Shown here: piece by piece, positions 19,348 to 28,226 of the stretch
Layout: the number at the start of each line of letters is the position of its first letter
Numbering within the stretch: position 1 is the first letter of the stretch
Assembly: GCA_964491605.1 (NCBI GenBank)
Contig: CAZBGY010000001.1
Location: 23,694 to 87,693, forward strand
Reading direction: 5' to 3'
Length of the DNA: 64,000 nt
From: an uncultured Candidatus Bathyarchaeia archaeon
GTDB taxonomy: Archaea; Thermoproteota; CALKCG01; B24; DRYS01
Notes under the pieces: model-generated
The model's database searches: none
What the model saw: the letters and a program-made list of their open reading frames with translations, nothing else
Told to the model about the DNA's origin: nothing
Position numbers and translations under genes: made by a program

Positions 19348-20094
19348 ATGTTTTACTATGGATTGAAAGCTATAGAAGTATCAGATTTAGTGAAGATTTA
19401 CGATGATGGTACGGTAGCTTTAGATGGTTTAACGTTCACGGTTGAACCTGGTGAGATCTACGGTTTAATAGGTCCTAATGGAGCTGGTAAGACTACCACC
19501 CTAAGGATAATAGCTACTCTGCTTAAGCCTACCTCCGGTCTTGTTAAAGTTTTAGGATTTGATGTAGTAGACCAAGCCGAGGAGGTTAGACGTATCATAA
19601 GCTATCTACCGGAGGAAGCTGGCGTGTACGGTAACCTTACAGGCTACGAGTATCTAAGCTTCGTAGCAAGCTTATACGCTAGAAACGAGGATGAAGCTAA
19701 GGCTATGATCGATGAAGCTCTCGAGGTATCCGGTTTAGGCTCTAGGATTAGGGATAGGGTTAAAAGCTATAGTAAGGGTATGCTTCGTAGACTTCAAGTT
19801 GCTAGGACCCTGATGGTTAAACCTAAGCTGGCTATCCTCGATGAACCTACAAGCGGTTTAGATGTGTATCATGCACACTATGTAAGGAGATGTATACGGA
19901 GGTATGTCGATGAATACGGGTTAACCGTACTTATCTCAAGTCACAATATGCTTGAGATAGAATATCTATGCGATCGCGTACTACTCATACATAAGGGTAG
20001 AGGTGTGGATGAAGATTCACCTAGATCGTTGAAGGATAGATATGCGTCCAGCAATATGGAGGAGGTCTTCCTTAAAGCGGTTGGGTTGATATGA
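19348..20094 (+). CDS. ABC transporter ATP-binding protein
   Basis: Walker A GPNGAGKTT, signature YSKGMLRRL, Walker B LAILDEPTSGLD. Confidence 0.85.
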   Translation: MFYYGLKAIEVSDLVKIYDDGTVALDGLTFTVEPGEIYGLIGPNGAGKTTTLRIIATLLKPTSGLVKVLGFDVVDQAEEVRRIISYLPEEAGVYGNLTGYEYLSFVASLYARNEDEAKAMIDEALEVSGLGSRIRDRVKSYSKGMLRRLQVARTLMVKPKLAILDEPTSGLDVYHAHYVRRCIRRYVDEYGLTVLISSHNMLEIEYLCDRVLLIHKGRGVDEDSPRSLKDRYASSNMEEVFLKAVGLI

Positions 20095-21404
20095 ATCCTC
20101 TTAAAGCCCTTGTGGTTAAGGAGTTCAAAGACTTGTTGAGGGAGCCTCAAATTCTTCTAGGTATAATACTAGCTCCCATACTGATGCTAGGTATAATGGG
20201 CGTTATCCTCTCAACAGCCTTCTCATCCGTTAGGGAGGCTGCAGCCGGGAGGGTATCCTTAGCCGTATTAGATCTAGATAAAAGTGTATATTCATCAGTT
20301 CTCATCGATATGTTGAGATTTACGAATGCATCGATCTACACCGTAGATTCTAGGAGTATAGATGAAGCAATAGTCGAAGCTGCGTCGAGGAATCTAAAGC
20401 TTCTCTTAGTTATACCCAGCGGATTCAGCGAGAATATAACTTTAGGCGTTAAAGCTAGGCTTCAAGTATACTCTGCTATCGAAGGCTTCTCTCTATCATC
20501 AACGATACCGTCGTCAGCTATCCAAGCATACATCGTAAGCTACGAGCATATACTAGTATACGATCTACTACGGAGGATAGCACCTAGCATCGACCCGAGT
20601 TTCGTATTGGATCCTATAAGCTTAGATGAATATACTGTTCTACGCGGGTCTATCATAAAGATTCCACCGGCAGCGGTATTTCAGAGGCTCTTCGGTCAAA
20701 GCCTTATGCTTCCATTCTCGATGTTCATGGTGGTGGTGGTAGCTATGCAGATAGCAGCCACTAGCATGGCTAAGGAGAAGGAGGGTAAGACGCTAGAGGT
20801 TCTACTCACATTACCTGTTAAACGTATATACATCCTCATGGGTAAGCTTGCGGGATCGATACTGATAGCTATCATAGGTTCGATCTCGTATCTCTCTGGC
20901 TTCGCTATATACATAGGCTCCTTCTCACTTATCCCTGTAGAAGAGCTGGTAGGGTTGGATTTACCAATGGAATCTATCAAGATAATGGAGATACCGCTCC
21001 AAGGCTACATAATTATGGGTATTCTACTAGTCTTATCGCTTATAGCGTTCCTCTCGATAGCTATAGGCTTATCAGCTCTAGCAGATGATGTTCGAAGTGC
21101 TCAAAGCCTCCTAGGTTTAGTATTCATACCTTTAGTAATACCCTTTATGTTTTCGATTTTCGCCGATATAAATTCCCTCCCAATCGCCTTAAGGATTATG
21201 GTATACGCTATACCGTTATCCTACCCTATACTATCTATAAACTCGATAATATCCGGGGATTACCTTACGCCATCGTTAGGTATAGCGTACCTATCGATCT
21301 TCACTATCGTTATCTTGTATATATTTGCGTGGTTCTTCGGAAGTGAGAAGATACTTACAGCCAAAATTAGGTTTATGAGGAAACCTAAAGTTAGCGATAT
21401 TTAG
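20091..21404 (+). CDS. ABC-2 family transporter permease
   Basis: 437-aa polytopic membrane protein, start overlapping the ATPase stop (ATGA). It has an N-terminal TM, a large extracytoplasmic loop, then a 5-6 TM bundle. Confidence 0.7.
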   Translation: MNPLKALVVKEFKDLLREPQILLGIILAPILMLGIMGVILSTAFSSVREAAAGRVSLAVLDLDKSVYSSVLIDMLRFTNASIYTVDSRSIDEAIVEAASRNLKLLLVIPSGFSENITLGVKARLQVYSAIEGFSLSSTIPSSAIQAYIVSYEHILVYDLLRRIAPSIDPSFVLDPISLDEYTVLRGSIIKIPPAAVFQRLFGQSLMLPFSMFMVVVVAMQIAATSMAKEKEGKTLEVLLTLPVKRIYILMGKLAGSILIAIIGSISYLSGFAIYIGSFSLIPVEELVGLDLPMESIKIMEIPLQGYIIMGILLVLSLIAFLSIAIGLSALADDVRSAQSLLGLVFIPLVIPFMFSIFADINSLPIALRIMVYAIPLSYPILSINSIISGDYLTPSLGIAYLSIFTIVILYIFAWFFGSEKILTAKIRFMRKPKVSDI

Positions 21405-21439: not shown

Positions 21440-22228
21440 TTGAATCCTGGCATGGCTTCGGCTTTCGTAAACCCTAGATTCGAAGATATCGTAGAGCTAT
21501 TCAGGAGAAGTCTAGCTGAAGGTATGGTTATGATCCTAGTTGGTGAGTGCAGCGTAGAATATAAGGGTAGGGGTGTTGCAAGCCTAGAATCCGGTTCGCG
21601 TATAGTTATAACTAAACCAGACGGCTCCCTGCTCATACATGCAGCGACTAGCGTAGAACCTGTAAACTGGCAGCCTCCAGGATCGAAGCTGGAGGTCCGC
21701 ATCGAAGACGATAATCTAGTCCTATCATCTACTAGGAAAGCACCCTACGAGAATGTAACAGCCCGCTTCATATCCATATCACTAGTAGCGGTATGTAAGC
21801 TTGAAATCAAACCTAGATTCAAAGTCGAGATAGGCGAGGAAGCTATACGGGAAGCGGTATTAGCCGAGCCAAGCCTAATAGAGGATGGATTCAAACCTAT
21901 ATCTATAGAGAAACCGGTGGAGGCTGGGTTCATAGATCTATACGGTCTAGATAGGGATGGTAGATTGGTGGTAGTAGAGCTTAAAAGAGTGAAAGCCGAT
22001 GTAGAAGCCGTAGAACAGCTTAAAACCTATATGGACTCGCTTACCGATAGTTACGGATCGGTAAGAGGCATACTAGCCGCTCCATCGATAACCTATAAAG
22101 CATATATGAAGCTGAAGGAGTTCGGGCTAGAATACAGGAAGATCGATATAGCTAAATGCATATCGATCCTAACATCGAGAAGAAGGCAGCAGAGAAAGCT
22201 GGGGGAATACTACGGAGATAAAAGTTAA
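21440..22228 (+). CDS. nucS: endonuclease NucS (EndoMS, mismatch-specific RecB-like nuclease)
   Basis: 262 aa; N-terminal NucS DNA-binding-domain pattern and C-terminal RecB-family nuclease motifs (IDLYGLD...VVVELK). Confidence 0.7.
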   Translation: MNPGMASAFVNPRFEDIVELFRRSLAEGMVMILVGECSVEYKGRGVASLESGSRIVITKPDGSLLIHAATSVEPVNWQPPGSKLEVRIEDDNLVLSSTRKAPYENVTARFISISLVAVCKLEIKPRFKVEIGEEAIREAVLAEPSLIEDGFKPISIEKPVEAGFIDLYGLDRDGRLVVVELKRVKADVEAVEQLKTYMDSLTDSYGSVRGILAAPSITYKAYMKLKEFGLEYRKIDIAKCISILTSRRRQQRKLGEYYGDKS

Positions 22229-22261: not shown

Positions 22262-22339
22262 GGACCCGTAGCGCAGTCAGGATAGCGCGGCAGCCTCCTA
22301 AGCTGTCGGTCGTGGGTTCGAATCCCACCGGGTCCGCCA
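22262..22339 (+). tRNA. tRNA-Arg (anticodon CCT), CCA encoded
   Basis: Acceptor GGACCCG/CGGGTCC; anticodon stem GCAGC/GCTGT; loop CTCCTAA; T-arm GTGGG-TTCGAAT-CCCAC; discriminator G followed by genomic CCA. Confidence 0.85.
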
Positions 22340-22520: not shown

Positions 22521-23552
22521 TTAAGCTAGTTTCTCCCCGCAGTTTAGGCAGAATTTAGCTTCGGATGGTATATCGCTTCCGCATTTAGGGCATTTCCTAG
22601 TAGGTTGTTGCTGTAATGAGCTTCCGCAATTTATACAGAATTTAGCTCCCGCTGGGTTTGTCGTACCACATTTGGGGCATACCTGTCCAGGCTGCATAGG
22701 TGATCCACAGTTCATACAGAATCTAGCTGTCTGCGGATTCTGGTATCCGCATTTAGGGCATTGTATCATAGGCTGAGTTTGAGGTTGAGGCTGCTGGAAT
22801 AGTGGGGGTATTATAGCTATTCCTGCTCCGACAGCTGCACCTGGGCTTTGGGATAAACTTTCAGCTGCCTTCTGAACTGTCTGCATCCTTAAGACTTCAT
22901 CCGCCGATACACCTGTTCTTAGGAAGAATATTCTATCCCTCCATTCCGGAGTCGTATCTATACCTTCAAATTTAACGTCTATAAGCTCTAACCCTATCCT
23001 TCTGAACGGCTCGTATAATATATTTCTAGCTAGAAGGCTTGTTTCATCGAGTTTCCCGTAGACTTCTACTAGCGAGTATTGACTTAAATTATCGATGAGC
23101 CTCTCGTTGAAGTATCCTCTAAGGAATTCTTGAAGCCTATCCGTCGTGTACGCATTTTGCCCTCCGATAACCTCGTTAACAAATAGGTTAGGCTCCTCCA
23201 CTCTGAACCAGAAGCTTCCATAGAATTTAAGCGGTGCAAGCTCTTTAGTCTGACCCTGCGCTCCGAATCTACCTTGAAACTGCTTCAAAGATATAAATAT
23301 AACTGTAGCTCTGAACGGGACTCTATCAAAGCCGGCTACCCTCGATAGTATACCCGTGAGTAGCGGTAGATTCGCTGTCGTAAGTACATGCCTCCCAGCT
23401 CTGAATACATCATAAGCCTTCCCATCCCTGAAGAAGACTGCAGCCTCATATTCGTGGACGATAAGGTTATCACCCCAGGTTATCTCCTCGCTCGGATACC
23501 TCCAAACTATATCCCCCTCTCTAGCTCCGATCCATTCGATAACCTTCGGCAT
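22521..23552 (-). CDS. SPFH/Band-7 (PF13421-like) domain protein with three C-terminal zinc-ribbon repeats
   Basis: N-terminal VIEW..DIVWRYP...FRDGKA.DVF.AGRHVL pattern typical of the SPFH Band_7_1 family. The C-terminus carries 3x CPKCG-x10-FC(M/I/L)NCG double-Cys-pair repeats in a Q/P-rich linker. Confidence 0.6.
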   Translation of the reverse strand: MPKVIEWIGAREGDIVWRYPSEEITWGDNLIVHEYEAAVFFRDGKAYDVFRAGRHVLTTANLPLLTGILSRVAGFDRVPFRATVIFISLKQFQGRFGAQGQTKELAPLKFYGSFWFRVEEPNLFVNEVIGGQNAYTTDRLQEFLRGYFNERLIDNLSQYSLVEVYGKLDETSLLARNILYEPFRRIGLELIDVKFEGIDTTPEWRDRIFFLRTGVSADEVLRMQTVQKAAESLSQSPGAAVGAGIAIIPPLFQQPQPQTQPMIQCPKCGYQNPQTARFCMNCGSPMQPGQVCPKCGTTNPAGAKFCINCGSSLQQQPTRKCPKCGSDIPSEAKFCLNCGEKLA

Positions 23553-24089
23553 TTATCCTACCACCCCTCTCAATACATCTATTCTCCTATCGATAAGGGA
23601 ATCGAGTTCATCTATCTTAGATATCAAGCCGTCTATAATCCTTCTCCACTCATCGCTCCCAGGCTCTGATGCCGTTAAGGATCTTACATCAGATTTAATC
23701 GATTCAGCTTTCTCGATCAACCCTAGATCGTATTCGATTATAGATTCAATCTTATCCTCCTTAACCTTCACGGCGTCAAACAAGCCTGCATAGCCTGCTA
23801 CAGCCCTATCTATACGCTGAGTAACCCTATCGAGACGATATGATAGTGTATCTATCCTCCAAGAATCTTCACCCGAAATCTTCCTAGCTACGGCTGGGTT
23901 TGATAAGCTCCTCCTCAAAATATTCTTAGCATCCCTCAACCTAGCCGCAACCTCCATCCTAACAAGCCTATCGCTCTCCCTCCTAACCTCCTTCTCCTTA
24001 TACCCTCGATAACCTGGTATGTAGCTGAGGATCCTCTCTGTAAGGCTTATCTCTCTCTTCACTTTATCGATACGTTCCTCTACGCTCAC
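23553..24089 (-). CDS. coiled-coil protein, translationally coupled to flanking genes
   Basis: Highly charged, heptad-rich sequence (RIDxxxxRI repeats). The probable start is GTG 24089-24087, overlapping the upstream TGA (GTGA). The stop abuts the ATG of the SPFH gene. The track ORF extends to 24221 only through overlap with the upstream gene. Confidence 0.45.
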   Translation of the reverse strand: MSVEERIDKVKREISLTERILSYIPGYRGYKEKEVRRESDRLVRMEVAARLRDAKNILRRSLSNPAVARKISGEDSWRIDTLSYRLDRVTQRIDRAVAGYAGLFDAVKVKEDKIESIIEYDLGLIEKAESIKSDVRSLTASEPGSDEWRRIIDGLISKIDELDSLIDRRIDVLRGVVG

Positions 24090-24433
24090 CTCATCCTCCC
24101 CCAGTAAGCTGAGAATCCTATAAGGACTAGTACCACCAGTAGTATGCCTACGATCGTCAGCGGATGTACCAACGGGTATGTAACCGAGGATAAAGCTAAA
24201 GCTACCATAACCAAACCCCAATATAGATAGAATAACCGATCCCTCTTAAACCATAACGCATAGAGGACCGTATATACGCCTAGAGGACCTAAAACCCAGA
24301 ATACGATATCTACCATATCGAACGCTAAAACGCCTACGCTATAAACGGTAAAAGCTACCCCTATCGAAGATACAATAACCGCGAGAGCTCCGACGGCGTA
24401 TTCAAACTTTCTAAACCTATGGTTACCGCTCAT
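24086..24433 (-). CDS. small polytopic membrane protein (3-4 TM helices)
   Basis: 115 aa, almost entirely hydrophobic helices; first gene of the 3-gene minus-strand unit. Confidence 0.5.
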   Translation of the reverse strand: MSGNHRFRKFEYAVGALAVIVSSIGVAFTVYSVGVLAFDMVDIVFWVLGPLGVYTVLYALWFKRDRLFYLYWGLVMVALALSSVTYPLVHPLTIVGILLVVLVLIGFSAYWGRMR

Positions 24434-24512
24434 ACAGCTAATAGGTAAACATATTGAGTATATAAGATTATTTGTAATCTTTAAATCCCTAACAAGTATA
24501 GTATAGGGGCGA

Positions 24513-25130
24513 GTGGTAAGATTGCCGATCCTAGGTGGAATCGCGAAGAAGCTTACACCGCCTAAGATCAGGTTAACCCTGAAACTCGGTAAGGACTACT
24601 ATGCGCTTGGAGAGAATCTAGAAGGTGAGCTACAGTTATCCTCCGACGAAGAAGTTGACGTCGAAGAGATTAGATGCGAGCTCACATGCGTCGAAGCCGT
24701 TAAAACTGTACGGTATGTAGAAGCTAGAGTTGGAAGATCAGGGTCTCCAGTTATGGTTCCCACCGAAACCTGGCAATCCGCTACCCTCTACTCAACTAAG
24801 ATCGTGTTAAGCGGCCCTACACATATCAGTAAAGGCTTTACGGATAGTTACCGATTCAAGGTAAGCATACCTATAACATTGAAGCCGACATATAAGGGAG
24901 TTGATAGGAGGGTTACATGGACGATTAAAGGTGTAGCCGCTGTTGAAAATAGACCTGACGCTACGAGTAATACCGTAGAACTTCAGATAATCCAACCAGC
25001 CGCTCCGCCAGTGGTTAAAGAGAAGGAGATAGTGCGCGAGATAGTCGTAGCTCCATGCAAATACTGCGGAACACTATTCCCGGTTACAGAGACTACATGT
25101 CCCAACTGCGGTGCTAAGAGAACAGGTTAA
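24513..25130 (+). CDS. Spo0M-like / arrestin-N-like beta-sandwich protein with C-terminal zinc ribbon
   Basis: Pattern Y..GE.LEGEL.L, then IRCELTCVE, FKVSIPITLKPTY and VTWTIKGV, matching the Spo0M/arrestin-N architecture. A C-terminal CKYCG...CPNCG ribbon follows. Confidence 0.45.
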   Translation: MVRLPILGGIAKKLTPPKIRLTLKLGKDYYALGENLEGELQLSSDEEVDVEEIRCELTCVEAVKTVRYVEARVGRSGSPVMVPTETWQSATLYSTKIVLSGPTHISKGFTDSYRFKVSIPITLKPTYKGVDRRVTWTIKGVAAVENRPDATSNTVELQIIQPAAPPVVKEKEIVREIVVAPCKYCGTLFPVTETTCPNCGAKRTG

Positions 25131-25379: not shown

Positions 25380-25465
25380 CGCCGGGGGCGGGATTTGAAC
25401 CCGCGCGGCGCATATGCGCCACAGGCTTAGCAGGCCTGCACCCTACCAGGCTAGGTGACCCCGGC
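25380..25465 (-). tRNA. tRNA-Ser (anticodon GCT), long variable arm
   Basis: On the minus strand: acceptor GCCGGGG/CCCCGGC; anticodon stem CAGGC/GCCTG; loop CTGCTAA; variable arm GGCGC-ATAT-GCGCC; T-arm GCGGG-TTCAAAT-CCCGC; discriminator G. Confidence 0.85.
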
Positions 25466-25669: not shown

Positions 25670-26866
25670 GTGTGGGCGTTGATCATGGGTAAAAGTACTA
25701 TCGCTGTTTCCATTATAGCCGTTATCTTATCTATTTCATCGATCATGCTATACAATAGGGTTTCTGTTTTAGAGGGTATGTATGAAGCTAAGTCTATGGA
25801 GTGTGATGAGCTTAGATTTGCATACGCATCGATCCTATCCGAATATGAGTCTATGATTTCGGATTATCTTAAATTGAAATCGAATCACACGATGTTATCC
25901 GATCTCTATGAGAAGCTCCTCTCAGATTATCAAAACCTCTTATACGATTATCGGAATCTATCTTCAGATTACCTAGAGCTTACGAAGACTCTCGTCTCGC
26001 TTAATATGAGTTATAGGATCCTATACGATGAGTACAACGTTACTAGAAATAATCTTTCCCGTCTTCTCGATGATTACGAGGGGTTGAAGCATATGTATAG
26101 CGATCTATTCCGCGATTATACTTCGCTGCTTGAGGAATATAGCATTTTAAGAACGAGTTACGAATCTCTAAAAGCTAGATTATCAACCGGAGTTTTCGAA
26201 TCATTTGTTAGAGATTATTTAAAGCTTATAGATGAGGTTAACATACATGCTATCCATCCCAAGAGGGAGGATTTACTTCTCATAACACCTTATGATGATA
26301 GGGTTAGGAGCCTCATGCTACAGGTTACCGGTGGATGGAGCGGCTACTTCGATCTAAATGAAATATCTATGGAGGTGAAATCACTATTCGATTGGGTTAA
26401 AGGTAATGTGAGGTATAGGAGTGATGGTCTCTATCCACTACTTCCCTCTGATCCGAGCTTCCCACCGATATACATCTCAGATATGTGGCAGTATCCTAAT
26501 CAGACGTTAACTGTTAGGGAGGGTGATTGCGATGATCAAGCAATCCTGTTAGCTAGTATGCTTTCAGCTTATTTCCAAGGAAGGATTAGGGTTGAATGTA
26601 TAATCGTCACCGATCATATGGCCGTCTATACACCTTTCGAGGGTGGGAGGATAATGATACTTGATCCGGCCACAGGGTATTATACTGGTAGTCCTGGTAT
26701 GCCTAGCTTCGCCGATGTAAGGATGGAGGTTTACCGTTGGATAAGTAGGCTTGAAGATATGTTCGGTAAGAGAATCGATGTCAAATGGGTATTCTCTGAT
26801 AGGATCTTGAAGTTATTCTATAATACTGAAAGCTTCATCGAATGGATATACGAAACGACACGGTAA
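25670..26866 (+). CDS. membrane-anchored transglutaminase-like cysteine protease-fold protein with N-terminal LxxDYxx heptad array
   Basis: N-terminal TM helix. About 14 consecutive heptads follow (LSDLYEK/LLSDYQN/LLYDYRN/LSSDYLE...). The C-terminal TGase core has Cys (EGDCDDQAILLAS), His (VTDHMAVY) and Asp (ILDP). Confidence 0.6.
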   Translation: MWALIMGKSTIAVSIIAVILSISSIMLYNRVSVLEGMYEAKSMECDELRFAYASILSEYESMISDYLKLKSNHTMLSDLYEKLLSDYQNLLYDYRNLSSDYLELTKTLVSLNMSYRILYDEYNVTRNNLSRLLDDYEGLKHMYSDLFRDYTSLLEEYSILRTSYESLKARLSTGVFESFVRDYLKLIDEVNIHAIHPKREDLLLITPYDDRVRSLMLQVTGGWSGYFDLNEISMEVKSLFDWVKGNVRYRSDGLYPLLPSDPSFPPIYISDMWQYPNQTLTVREGDCDDQAILLASMLSAYFQGRIRVECIIVTDHMAVYTPFEGGRIMILDPATGYYTGSPGMPSFADVRMEVYRWISRLEDMFGKRIDVKWVFSDRILKLFYNTESFIEWIYETTR

Positions 26867-26969: not shown

Positions 26970-28226
26970 ATGGCTAGCATAAAGTCTTATTCGCTCGAGA
27001 ACTATCGGTTTAGGAAGCTTCTAGAAGAGCTTAAATCTAAGGTCGGTAGAGGTACCGAGCTTATAAGCCTCTACGTACCTCCAGGTAGACCTATACATGA
27101 GGTTATAAATGGTTTATGGCAAGAGTATAATACAGCTTCTAATATAAAGTCTGATAGGACTAGGAAGAATGTTCAATCTGCTATAGAGCGTGTGATTCAG
27201 AGGCTTAGATACTTTAAGAAGACGCCTGAGAATGGCCTTGTAGTATTCTGCGGAGCTATACCCCAGGATGGGGAGGGAAGCGAGAGGCTTGAAGACTATG
27301 TGATAATACCCCCAGAGCCTATCAATGTATCCTATTATGGATGTTCCTCCACATTCTACTTAGACCCTCTATACGAGATTATCAGGGAGAGGGAATCCTA
27401 CGGTGTCATAATCCTAGATTCGAGTGAAGCTAGCTTCGGTATAATCTCTGGTAGAAGGATAGAGCTGGTTAGAGAGATAACTTCAGGTATACCTGGCAAG
27501 CATAGAGCTGGAGGGCAATCTGCACGTAGATTCGAGAGGCTTAGAGAGATGGAGCTTAACGAATTCTTCAGGAGGGTTGCTAAGTATGCAGATGAATTAT
27601 TCCTAGATAGGAGTGATATCAAAGGTATACTCGTAGCAGGGCCTGGACCTACTAAATACGAATTCCTAGATAAGGATTACCTCAACTACATGTTGAAGCA
27701 GAAGGTGGTAGGAGTAATAGATACGGCGTACACCGGTGAGGAAGGTCTACGCGAGGTAGCGAGTAAATCTGTGGATATACTTAGAGGCGTAAGACATATG
27801 GATGAGAAGAGGATCGTGCAGAGATTCTTTAAGGAAGCTACGTTGGGTGGTGGGCTTGCAGCTTACGGGGAGGATGAAGTTAGATCTCTCATGGAACGCG
27901 GGATGGTGGAGACTCTCATAATATCTGAAGGCGTAGATAGGATGAGGGTTACCGTCGAATGCGGTGTCTGCAGTTATACGGATAGACGTACAGTTAGGGC
28001 GGTAGATCTATTCGCTTTCGAAGCTGAGCTTTCCAGATCCAAATGCCCGTCATGCGGTAATCAATCCTTAAAGATTAAGGAGAAGAAGAATCTCATAGAT
28101 GATTTTATAGAGTTAGCTGAGCGATACAATGTTAACGTAGAATTGATATCTACAGAAACAGAAGAGGGAGAGATGTTCCTTAAAGGTTTCGGTGGTATTG
28201 CCGCTCTACTAAGGTATAAGGTTTAG
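26970..28226 (+). CDS. prf1: peptide chain release factor aRF1
   Basis: NIKS codon-recognition motif (TASNIKSDRTRKN), GGQ motif (KHRAGGQSARRF), 418 aa; CxxC-x27-CxxC insert in domain 3. Confidence 0.9.
   Translation: MASIKSYSLENYRFRKLLEELKSKVGRGTELISLYVPPGRPIHEVINGLWQEYNTASNIKSDRTRKNVQSAIERVIQRLRYFKKTPENGLVVFCGAIPQDGEGSERLEDYVIIPPEPINVSYYGCSSTFYLDPLYEIIRERESYGVIILDSSEASFGIISGRRIELVREITSGIPGKHRAGGQSARRFERLREMELNEFFRRVAKYADELFLDRSDIKGILVAGPGPTKYEFLDKDYLNYMLKQKVVGVIDTAYTGEEGLREVASKSVDILRGVRHMDEKRIVQRFFKEATLGGGLAAYGEDEVRSLMERGMVETLIISEGVDRMRVTVECGVCSYTDRRTVRAVDLFAFEAELSRSKCPSCGNQSLKIKEKKNLIDDFIELAERYNVNVELISTETEEGEMFLKGFGGIAALLRYKV

Follow-up and report, generated by a model that had tools for sequence, protein, structure and literature searches.

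In stomatin, flotillin and HflK/C, a transmembrane (TM) anchor, the SPFH domain and a coiled-coil wall are combined in one chain. SPFH proteins of the YdjI/SamI type are, to our knowledge, the only class of SPFH proteins tied by experiment to membrane repair by PspA (bacterial ESCRT-III), and we know of their membrane recruitment and binding partners only from Bacillus. In B. subtilis, YdjI is soluble, depends on the membrane proteins YdjG and YdjH for its localisation and recruits PspA (PMC8581546; bioRxiv 10.64898/2026.02.06.704340). Its C-terminal zinc finger comes after a region of low complexity (PMC8581546; PMC11237479). In the 2026 preprint, transcriptional phenotypes of SamGHI that were independent of PspA were described, and a signalling role was suggested (bioRxiv 10.64898/2026.02.06.704340).

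An SPFH gene of this type was studied together with its neighbours in an archaeal genome; "the window" refers to the whole 64-kb stretch of DNA that was analysed. Three genes lie one after another on the minus strand. The first (TM; 24086-24433, with the TGA stop at 24088-24086) encodes a 115-aa protein with four predicted TM segments, the second (CC; 23553-24089, GTG start at 24089-24087 and TAA stop at 23555-23553) encodes a 178-aa helical protein, and the third (SPFH; 22521-23552, ATG start at 23552-23550, end at 22521) encodes a 343-aa protein. The GTG of CC overlaps the TGA of TM (GTGA), and the TAA of CC directly abuts the ATG of SPFH (TAA-ATG); when the coordinates were re-read, all of them agreed with the initial annotation. 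Sequences resembling ribosome-binding sites precede both downstream genes, namely, GGAGG 5 nt upstream of the GTG of CC and GGGGTGGTAGGA upstream of the ATG of SPFH. The GTG start at 24089, on which the proposed coupling depended, was supported by approximately 800 CC homologs that share the same length and by the homologous codon in 80 genome loci, which was ATG in 61, GTG in 7 and TTG in 6. A 222-aa open reading frame beginning at TTG 24221 was rejected as the CC gene because the close homologs are all approximately 178 aa long and begin at the residue equivalent to the GTG. The overlap between the TM stop and the CC start was 4 nt in 52 of 77 loci and 1 nt in 15 of them. Since the overlap recurs in relatives, it may be concluded that the coupling is conserved and did not arise by chance.

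The conservation of the neighbourhood was studied in 80 species-level genome loci from Bathyarchaeia, Nitrososphaeria and Nezhaarchaeota, which cover archaeal-type copies only. The order TM-CC-SPFH on one strand was found in all of these loci that extended far enough past the CC gene; in the three loci that had no SPFH match, the sequence ended within approximately 0.75 kb of CC. A TM homolog (31-70% identity) was located directly upstream of CC in 77 of the 80 loci, and the SPFH proteins were 68-93% identical across the three groups. Co-occurrence of the three families, a check named beforehand, was thus observed in essentially all 80 loci, and with the order and the overlaps both kept, the trio could be confirmed as a conserved, translationally coupled unit.

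A dyad of CC followed by a Band_7_1 gene was also present in eight of eight further divergent lineages, bacteria included (L087, L091, L092, L097, L094, L096, L088 and L090/L093/L095), so that CC stood immediately upstream of the Band_7_1 gene in every lineage sampled. TM homologs occurred before or after the dyad in L091 and L092, and the small 4-TM gene was often missing from bacterial loci. In most loci, the zinc ribbon (ZnR) was part of the SPFH protein, but P0205 and P0240/L096 had it on CC; in L096, the ZnR-CC fusion was paired with SPFH+SHOCT, and in the bacterial lineage L094, HTH_17 replaced the ribbons of the SPFH protein. Such shifting of a domain between SPFH and CC is a pattern typical of physical partners. 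In Chloroflexota, which were the only bacteria in which an arrangement of CC, PspA and SPFH genes was sampled (a search for homologs of the Thermomicrobiales CC domain gave only 9), the operon order was CC-(DUF4178)-PspA_IM30-Band_7_1+ZnR. This operon was preceded by a gene for a 2-TM protein with a ZnR and a weak winged-helix-like (PCI) match. The presence of CC genes beside PspA_IM30 and Band_7_1 genes in this phylum bears out the supposed link of the archaeal trio to the PspA/YdjI system.

The SPFH protein matched the Pfam family Band_7_1 (PF13421), to which YdjI also belongs, with an E value of 5.7e-26 and 91.9 bits against a gathering cut-off of 24, as expected from its first description as Band_7_1-like. 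The match, which defines the SPFH core, covered residues 16-203 (DNA 23507-22944, minus strand) and positions 1-198 of the 211 positions of the model. A Gly/Ala-rich hydrophobic stretch and a Q/P linker (residues ~236-262), including QQPQPQTQP, precede three C4 zinc ribbons at residues 265-282, 292-309 and 321-338 (DNA 22760-22707, 22679-22626 and 22592-22539, minus strand), which were recognised by Zn_Ribbon_1 (E 8.8e-26, three stretches) and DZR (E 3.2e-23). The three tandem C-terminal ribbons after a Q/P-rich linker had been correctly noted, but their spacing, given as x10, is really x8: the motif reads CPKCG-x8-FCxNCG, so that 10 residues separate the second Cys from the third. No TM segment was found in this protein (maximum of 1.17 in a Kyte-Doolittle 19-residue window). 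By its sequence, it is a soluble PF13421 protein of the YdjI/SamI type, and it shares with YdjI a soluble core that is followed first by a low-complexity linker and then by zinc ribbons at the C-terminus, of which it has three, unlike YdjI with one. The same linker and ribbon architecture was found in the Chloroflexota SPFH homologs. The ribbon had been regarded as an archaeal fusion that brought a function of YdjG into the SPFH protein; this idea had to be abandoned because YdjI and its bacterial homologs already carry a C-terminal ribbon. At the level of domain architecture, the ribbon on the SPFH protein is not new, and only its triplication is a variation. A literature search on PF13421 and COG4260 yielded nothing functional.

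In the TM protein, hydropathy analysis revealed four hydrophobic segments (residues ~12-34, 38-60, 67-86 and 88-110). Basic residues are located at the N-terminus, in the central loop and at the C-terminus, and from this placement, both ends are predicted to be cytoplasmic. The protein matched no Pfam or NCBIfam family. In particular, Pfam indicated neither a TPM domain as in YdjH nor a zinc ribbon or YpeB-like part as in YdjG.

The CC protein matched no Pfam family and contains no TM segment (19-residue Kyte-Doolittle maximum of 0.45). Its family, found in archaea and bacteria, comprised 1,292 or more clusters at 50% identity (E <= 1e-3), and CC has the conserved motifs IPGYRGYKEKE (DNA 24020-23988, minus strand) and AGYAGLFDAVKV (DNA 23798-23763, minus strand). 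A named relative was NCBIfam NF047596 (LIMLP_15305) of Leptospira, which scored 57.2 bits (E 1.9e-15) against an equivalog cut-off of 210 and aligned end to end, residues 3-172 with model positions 4-172 of 175. The two are equal in size and evidently belong to one superfamily as distant members, with CC outside the equivalog. The name LIMLP_15305 conveys no function, and a literature search on it found nothing functional. In an AF2 model (pLDDT 83, pTM 0.79), the protein folds into a compact four-helix bundle with conserved loop-loop contacts, in which the helices are approximately 27-30 residues long. A LemA-like bundle was also considered after DUF2207 was noticed upstream in a Chloroflexia locus. 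This candidate was rejected: there was no LemA match in Pfam, and the 50 matches listed by Foldseek did not include 2ETD, the LemA structure of T. maritima TM0961. PspAA was likewise rejected, since it has been described as three helices together with a sheet of four strands (Ravi et al. 2024), whereas CC is almost wholly helical. The best reading is that CC represents a separate, large and previously undescribed family of partners of Band_7_1 SPFH proteins.

Considering these data, it seems somewhat probable that the trio is an operon for a membrane-tethered SPFH scaffold of the YdjI/SamI type with a 4-TM anchor, a CC adaptor or regulator and a likely role in membrane stress. The 4-TM protein would serve as the membrane anchor, the role played in Bacillus by YdjG/YdjH, and the operon resembles pspA-ydjGHI in encoding a membrane protein that could do so. 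The SPFH protein may oligomerise beneath the membrane, and the CC bundle may be a dedicated soluble adaptor or regulator that uses its conserved PGYRGY / GYAGxFD end to bind SPFH. The three ribbons on their flexible Q/P linker could provide additional modules for contact with proteins or membranes. If B. subtilis and the Chloroflexota operons, in which a genuine PspA gene is bracketed by the CC and SPFH genes, are taken as analogues, membrane-stress surveillance or maintenance would be the most likely role of the archaeal module. The trio itself contains no PspA gene, unlike the B. subtilis operon, and in the window, a crude 3-sequence HMM for PspA found only an SMC-like ATPase (E 0.015); any PspA/ESCRT-III effector of this archaeon would presumably be encoded elsewhere. 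The archaeal operon also differs from that of B. subtilis in its additional invariant 178-aa helical-bundle partner, and no CC-like protein is mentioned in the published descriptions of the Bacillus operon. The stomatin-NfeD and flotillin-YqiJ/YuaF operons similarly pair an SPFH scaffold gene with a small multi-TM partner. However, a membrane anchor and a long coiled coil are built into the SPFH proteins encoded there, NfeD and YqiJ are unrelated partner families that gave no Pfam match here, and these operons are not known to contain a gene of the CC family.

The initial annotation had suggested that CC is a PspA/ESCRT-III-like scaffold, in which case it would polymerise and replace PspA in the archaeal YdjI system. 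CC is indeed alpha-helical, of a size similar to that of PspA, Vipp1 and ESCRT-III proteins, and encoded, like them, in membrane-associated SPFH contexts, here beside a YdjI-type SPFH gene in archaeal operons that have no PspA. Nevertheless, neither PspA_IM30 (PF04012) nor Snf7 (PF03357) matched CC in Pfam at E <= 1, and neither was among the 25 most-matched Pfam families listed for 94 diverse CC members, each of which was matched by no more than 3 members. In the profile comparison, which had been named beforehand as a check, the hhalign probabilities were only 0.2-0.4% when CC was compared with PspA (the E. coli protein and a profile of 5 sequences) and with yeast Snf7; the reference sequences had been confirmed by PspA_IM30 (166 bits) and Snf7 (177 bits). 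When the CC model was compared with the PDB, the 50 Foldseek matches listed were generic helical bundles with E >= 0.036, and PspA, Vipp1 and ESCRT-III were not among them. The four helices of similar length in the model form no long alpha1-alpha2 hairpin, and the N-terminus is highly charged, unlike an amphipathic membrane helix. Finally, because CC and a genuine PspA are encoded in one Chloroflexota operon, the CC family is a component distinct from PspA. Homology of CC to PspA/ESCRT-III is therefore largely refuted by these lines of evidence, and its action as a polymerising substitute for PspA is very unlikely.

The other explanations concern the trio as a whole. Band_7_1 proteins have neither a TM segment nor a long coiled coil, and the invariant CC-SPFH dyad is preceded or followed by a small TM protein, which would fit a divided SPFH protein whose TM anchor, SPFH domain and coiled-coil wall are three polypeptides, with CC opening into the cage wall or a lid. 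This reading is unlikely, since the confident model of CC shows a closed bundle whose loops make conserved contacts, rather than an extended coiled coil, and bacterial versions often do without the small 4-TM gene. It is slightly less probable that the trio is a signalling module, in which a regulator would be sequestered or released at the membrane by the pair of SPFH and CC, with the zinc ribbons or HTH_17 as the output domain. The HTH_17 in the place of the ribbons in a bacterial homolog, the weak winged-helix-like match with a ZnR in the Chloroflexota 2-TM protein and the PspA-independent transcriptional phenotypes of B. subtilis SamGHI (bioRxiv 10.64898/2026.02.06.704340) are in agreement with such a module. 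However, most members carry ribbons or SHOCT rather than HTH, and no regulator gene is conserved at the archaeal loci. Moreover, we know of no PF13240/DZR ribbons that bind DNA. A mobile or antiviral defence cassette, or unrelated genes that are merely adjacent, could be imagined from the flanking genes, which vary between lineages, and from the tRNA gene just downstream. This explanation is hardly credible: PADLOC gave no match for the three proteins or their arrestin-like neighbour (see below), and no integrase or transposase lies beside the trio in the window. The single copy per locus, the high identity of the SPFH proteins across classes and the conserved overlap junctions favour instead a vertically inherited housekeeping unit.

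The conservation of this locus reveals that in many archaea and several bacterial lineages, YdjI/SamI-type SPFH proteins come with a different, invariant partner, for which there is no Pfam model and on which a literature search found nothing. With CC, PspA and SPFH genes side by side in Chloroflexota, CC is a concrete candidate, amenable to testing, for a new member of the SPFH-PspA network. The tempting idea that a helical protein encoded beside an SPFH gene must be a PspA/ESCRT-III analogue is corrected by this case. A broader proposal, to which we give only a small chance, is that the CC proteins are a new and ancient family whose partnership with soluble SPFH proteins of the YdjI type is obligatory, and that they supply the missing link between these scaffolds and membranes, as well as PspA/ESCRT-III wherever it is present. 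In TACK archaea, sometimes together with an arrestin-like zinc-ribbon protein, the module might then perform PspA-independent organisation of membrane domains or cargo selection, with consequences for the prehistory of SPFH/arrestin/ESCRT sorting in eukaryotes.

The trio is separated from a divergent gene by an A+T-rich spacer of 79 bp (24434-24512), in which TTTAAAG and CTTATATAC elements are located 25-45 nt upstream of the ATG of TM; this spacer is probably the promoter region. The divergent gene (24513-25130, plus strand) encodes a beta-rich protein of 205 aa that matched Arrestin_N (PF00339) with E 3.1e-6 and 27.7 bits, the cut-off being 24.9. Arrestin_N was also recorded in its orthologs, and a single-sequence model of the protein was unusable (pLDDT 43). 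Of 86 scanned loci, 23 have this gene next to the trio (among the 80 species genomes, 17 do), and it is thus confined to a subset of lineages. At its C-terminus, the protein has a C4 zinc ribbon (DNA 25056-25109, plus strand) of the same kind as the SPFH ribbons. Zinc ribbons were also found in proteins of 250 aa and 409 aa encoded at other Bathyarchaeia loci.

The three consecutive minus-strand ORFs at 22521-24433 form an operon encoding a 115-aa membrane protein (TM; 24433..24086), a 178-aa helical protein (CC; GTG 24089 to TAA 23555-23553) and a 343-aa SPFH protein (ATG 23552 to 22521). The TGA stop of the TM gene shares bases with the CC start (GTGA), GGAGG lies 5 nt 5' of this GTG, and the TAA of the CC gene abuts the SPFH ATG with zero gap; a GGGGTGGTAGGA stretch is located upstream of that ATG. 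Reading of the sequence confirmed this layout and these junctions as described in the initial annotation. A mechanically called CC ORF starts at TTG 24221; the conserved start is instead GTG 24089.

Relatives were sought by scanning a single genome of each GTDB species for a sequence pattern; 231 genomes were positive, and the best 80 of the 231 were analysed. These belonged to Bathyarchaeia, Nitrososphaeria (Caldarchaeales-type genomes included) and Nezhaarchaeota, the closest among them being Bathyarchaeia MAGs from hot springs (81% identity), which assigns the window to a Bathyarchaeia archaeon. At the position of the window GTG, the 80 loci carried ATG in 61 cases, GTG in 7 and TTG in 6, and the TM and CC genes overlapped by 4 nt in 52 of 77 loci and by 1 nt in 15. 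Approximately 800 CC homologs from a 90%-clustered database (identity 60-91%) were almost all 172-181 aa long and started at the equivalent position. The homolog lengths and starts, together with the overlaps, uphold the GTG start and the coupling; judged from these sequences, both are conserved.

The window proteins were also compared by tblastn with the 80 genome loci and six further loci. The order TM, CC, SPFH on one strand was found in every locus that reached far enough, and the expected co-occurrence of the three genes was thereby borne out. In the three loci that lacked an SPFH match, the sequence stopped within ~0.75 kb of the CC gene, two of them continuing directly into an inserted gene for a 409-aa protein. 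A TM homolog was detected in 77/80 loci. Identity to the window proteins was 68-93% for SPFH, 54-81% for CC and 31-70% for TM. Between the CC and SPFH genes, the gap measured 0-2 nt in 16 loci and did not exceed 94 nt in 58. The 409-aa gene, whose product contains an internal zinc ribbon, lay between CC and SPFH in 19 loci, with an ATGA overlap at the junction in the one locus examined. A 250-aa paralog, its zinc ribbon at the N-terminus, was encoded just upstream of the TM gene in ~36 of the 80 loci.

These paralogs, which flank or split the trio, are of unknown family and have a C-terminal beta-rich domain in common; they occur in the Bathyarchaeia locus L017 (4852-5604 and 6534-7763) and in ~40 other Bathyarchaeia loci, and no copy is present in the window. 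By eye, their combination of a ribbon and a small beta domain recalls YdjG of B. subtilis. Archaeal-type copies with 59% identity to the window CC protein were also seen on two bacterial-labelled contigs, one from a 'Candidatus Acidoferrum' MAG (L065), where the context is likewise TM-CC-SPFH, and one encoding P0412 ('Patescibacteria group bacterium'); both are probably misbinned archaeal contigs.

The SPFH protein matched Pfam Band_7_1 (PF13421) at residues 16-203 (E 5.7e-26), which bears out its proposed YdjI-type identity, and it agreed with this known family in every testable respect. Three tandem ribbons (Zn_Ribbon_1/DZR) were present, as annotated, at residues 265-282, 292-309 and 321-338; their spacing had to be corrected to CPKCG-x8-FCxNCG, in which 10 residues separate the second Cys from the third, rather than x10 between the motifs. 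The ribbons are preceded by a Gly/Ala-rich stretch and then a QQPQPQTQP linker. Fusion of the ribbon to SPFH is ancestral within the Band_7_1 family and is not the archaeal novelty it had been taken for. By hydropathy, the protein has no hydrophobic segment of TM-helix length. The Gly/Ala-rich hydrophobic SPGAAVGAGIAIIPPLF stretch that joins the SPFH core to the Q/P linker (residues ~234-250; 22803-22853) is kept in archaeal homologs and is present in a looser version in Chloroflexota homologs; it falls short of TM-helix length and might dip into the membrane or mediate oligomerisation.

The CC protein had no Pfam family. Its sole named relative was the Leptospira family NF047596 of NCBIfam ('LIMLP_15305 family protein'), which aligned end to end at 57 bits, far under the cut-off of 210; in the literature searched, LIMLP_15305 appeared in one paper, as a locus tag in a table without a function. 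Because there is no Pfam model, the only name is a locus tag and the literature searched offered nothing on function, the family appears to be undescribed. A CC profile run against 1.84 billion representatives recovered 1,292 clusters (50% identity) at E <= 1e-3 and 600 at E <= 1e-10, nearly all of 160-185 aa. Among 94 diverse members, only P25, D40, R44 and R169 were invariant, and G26, G29, Y30, E34, R37, G99, Y100, L114 and D121 were nearly so, giving the motifs PG(Y/F)xGY...E..R..D...R and GY(A/S)GFFD.

The initial annotation had suggested that the CC protein is a PspA/ESCRT-III-like scaffold. Neither PspA_IM30 nor Snf7 was matched in Pfam by the window protein at E <= 1, and both were absent from the 25 most frequently matched of the 134 families hit by the 94 members, each of these 25 being matched by at most 3 members. 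The profile comparison suggested as a check was run with hhalign on the CC family profile; the probability was 0.2% for E. coli PspA and 0.4% for both a five-sequence PspA profile and yeast Snf7. The PspA and Snf7 controls were confirmed as genuine family members by 166 bits on PF04012 and 177 bits on PF03357, respectively. An AlphaFold2 model built with 30 homologs in the alignment was confident (pLDDT 83, pTM 0.79) and contained two short N-terminal helices followed by four of 26-30 residues (37-62, 73-100, 111-140 and 146-173), with both conserved Gly/aromatic loops paired in a small beta-bridge at one end. Its Foldseek matches in the PDB (50 listed) were generic helical bundles, including designed proteins, V-ATPase c-ring subunits, the Rx coiled-coil domain, IncA and talin rods (best E 0.036, TM-score <=0.42), and PspA, Vipp1 and ESCRT-III were not among them. 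The CC protein is not PspA/ESCRT-III-like, and that it serves as an analogue of PspA is very unlikely. The PspAA domain (three helices together with a sheet of four strands; Ravi et al., PMC11237479), also considered, is a different thing.

Ten more CC-family members from eight divergent lineages were looked up. In archaeal-type subfamilies with 33-47% identity (L087, L091, L092), CC was followed by Band_7_1 with a ribbon, and a small TM protein was encoded before or after the pair. The same pair was found in L097; on a bacterial contig (L094), CC was followed by Band_7_1 with HTH_17, and in L096 a ribbon-CC fusion preceded Band_7_1 with SHOCT. Thermomicrobiales (L090, L093, L095) encoded a 2-TM protein with a ribbon, CC, DUF4178, PspA_IM30 and Band_7_1, with DUF4178 fused to CC in L090 and a ribbon on Band_7_1 in L090 and L093. 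In one Chloroflexia locus (L088), the order was 2-TM protein with a ribbon, DUF2207, CC (here 435 aa long and ending in a disordered tail), then PspA_IM30 (E 6e-42) and lastly Band_7_1 (E 3.4e-64) with DZR. The CC-Band_7_1 dyad is thus invariant across every lineage sampled. The ribbon can reside on either partner, and PspA, where present, is an extra gene between the two; synteny is conserved while domains migrate between partners. The first gene of the Chloroflexota operons (L088 2220-2819; L090 4440-4964) encodes a conserved protein of ~170-200 aa that carries two TM segments at its N-terminus, a winged-helix-like central part (weak PCI match) and a zinc ribbon at its C-terminus; it is a possible membrane anchor or sensor for the bacterial CC-PspA-SPFH version.

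In B. subtilis, the membrane localisation of YdjI depends on the membrane proteins YdjG and YdjH, and YdjI interacts with PspA, whose foci require it (PMC8581546); a 2026 preprint also reports signalling phenotypes that are independent of PspA (bioRxiv 10.64898/2026.02.06.704340). YdjG combines a TM segment with two zinc ribbons and a YpeB-like domain; YdjH is a TPM-domain protein (Ravi et al., PMC11237479). The window TM protein resembles neither; four of its segments are hydrophobic, basic residues occupy the central loop and both ends, and no family match was obtained in Pfam or NCBIfam. Unlike the YdjI system, the window operon has no PspA gene, and across the 64-kb window a crude HMM found none, its single weak match being an SMC/Rad50-type ATPase (PF02463; 46045-47943, plus strand). 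Taken as one unit, the three genes make up a variant of the YdjI-type module.

On balance, a composite assembly appears somewhat probable, in which the 4-TM protein would act as anchor, the CC bundle as a dedicated adaptor or regulator contacting SPFH via its conserved loop end, and the SPFH protein would oligomerise under the membrane, with the ribbons on their flexible linker making further contacts; by analogy, it may function in membrane-stress surveillance or maintenance. A 'split SPFH' cage with a wall formed by the CC protein is unlikely, and a signalling module is quite unlikely. A defence or mobile cassette is highly improbable; no PADLOC matches were obtained. As a lead from comparative genomics, the trio is solid but not surprising.

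A gene divergent from the trio, separated from it by a 79-bp spacer (24513-25130, plus strand), encodes a beta-rich 205-aa protein that matches Arrestin_N only marginally (27.7 bits, cut-off 24.9). An RCExxCxE motif supplies two invariant Cys, and a C4 zinc ribbon is located C-terminally; in relatives, the start lies 3 codons further in (MPILGG). Its orthologs adjoin the trio, upstream or convergently downstream, in 23/86 loci (17/80 species genomes) of the window's clade, Nezhaarchaeota and Nitrososphaeria, and are absent where the 250-aa ribbon protein precedes the TM gene. On the strand opposite to the SPFH gene and 180 nt downstream of its stop is a tRNA-Arg(CCT) gene (22262-22339, plus strand), and tRNA-Ser(GCT) (25380-25465, minus strand) lies beyond the arrestin-like gene. 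NucS endonuclease (21440-22228; PF01939/PF21003) and, by eye, an ABC-transporter ATPase and permease pair (19348-21404) and a protein with the aRF1 NIKS motif (26970-28226), all on the plus strand, are ordinary neighbours, as is the SMC/Rad50-type ATPase. A 398-aa protein (25670-26866, plus strand) has an N-terminal hydrophobic segment, weak transglutaminase-core matches (PF01841, E 0.006) and ~150 residues of repetitive coiled coil with recurring Y..L..DY..L units.
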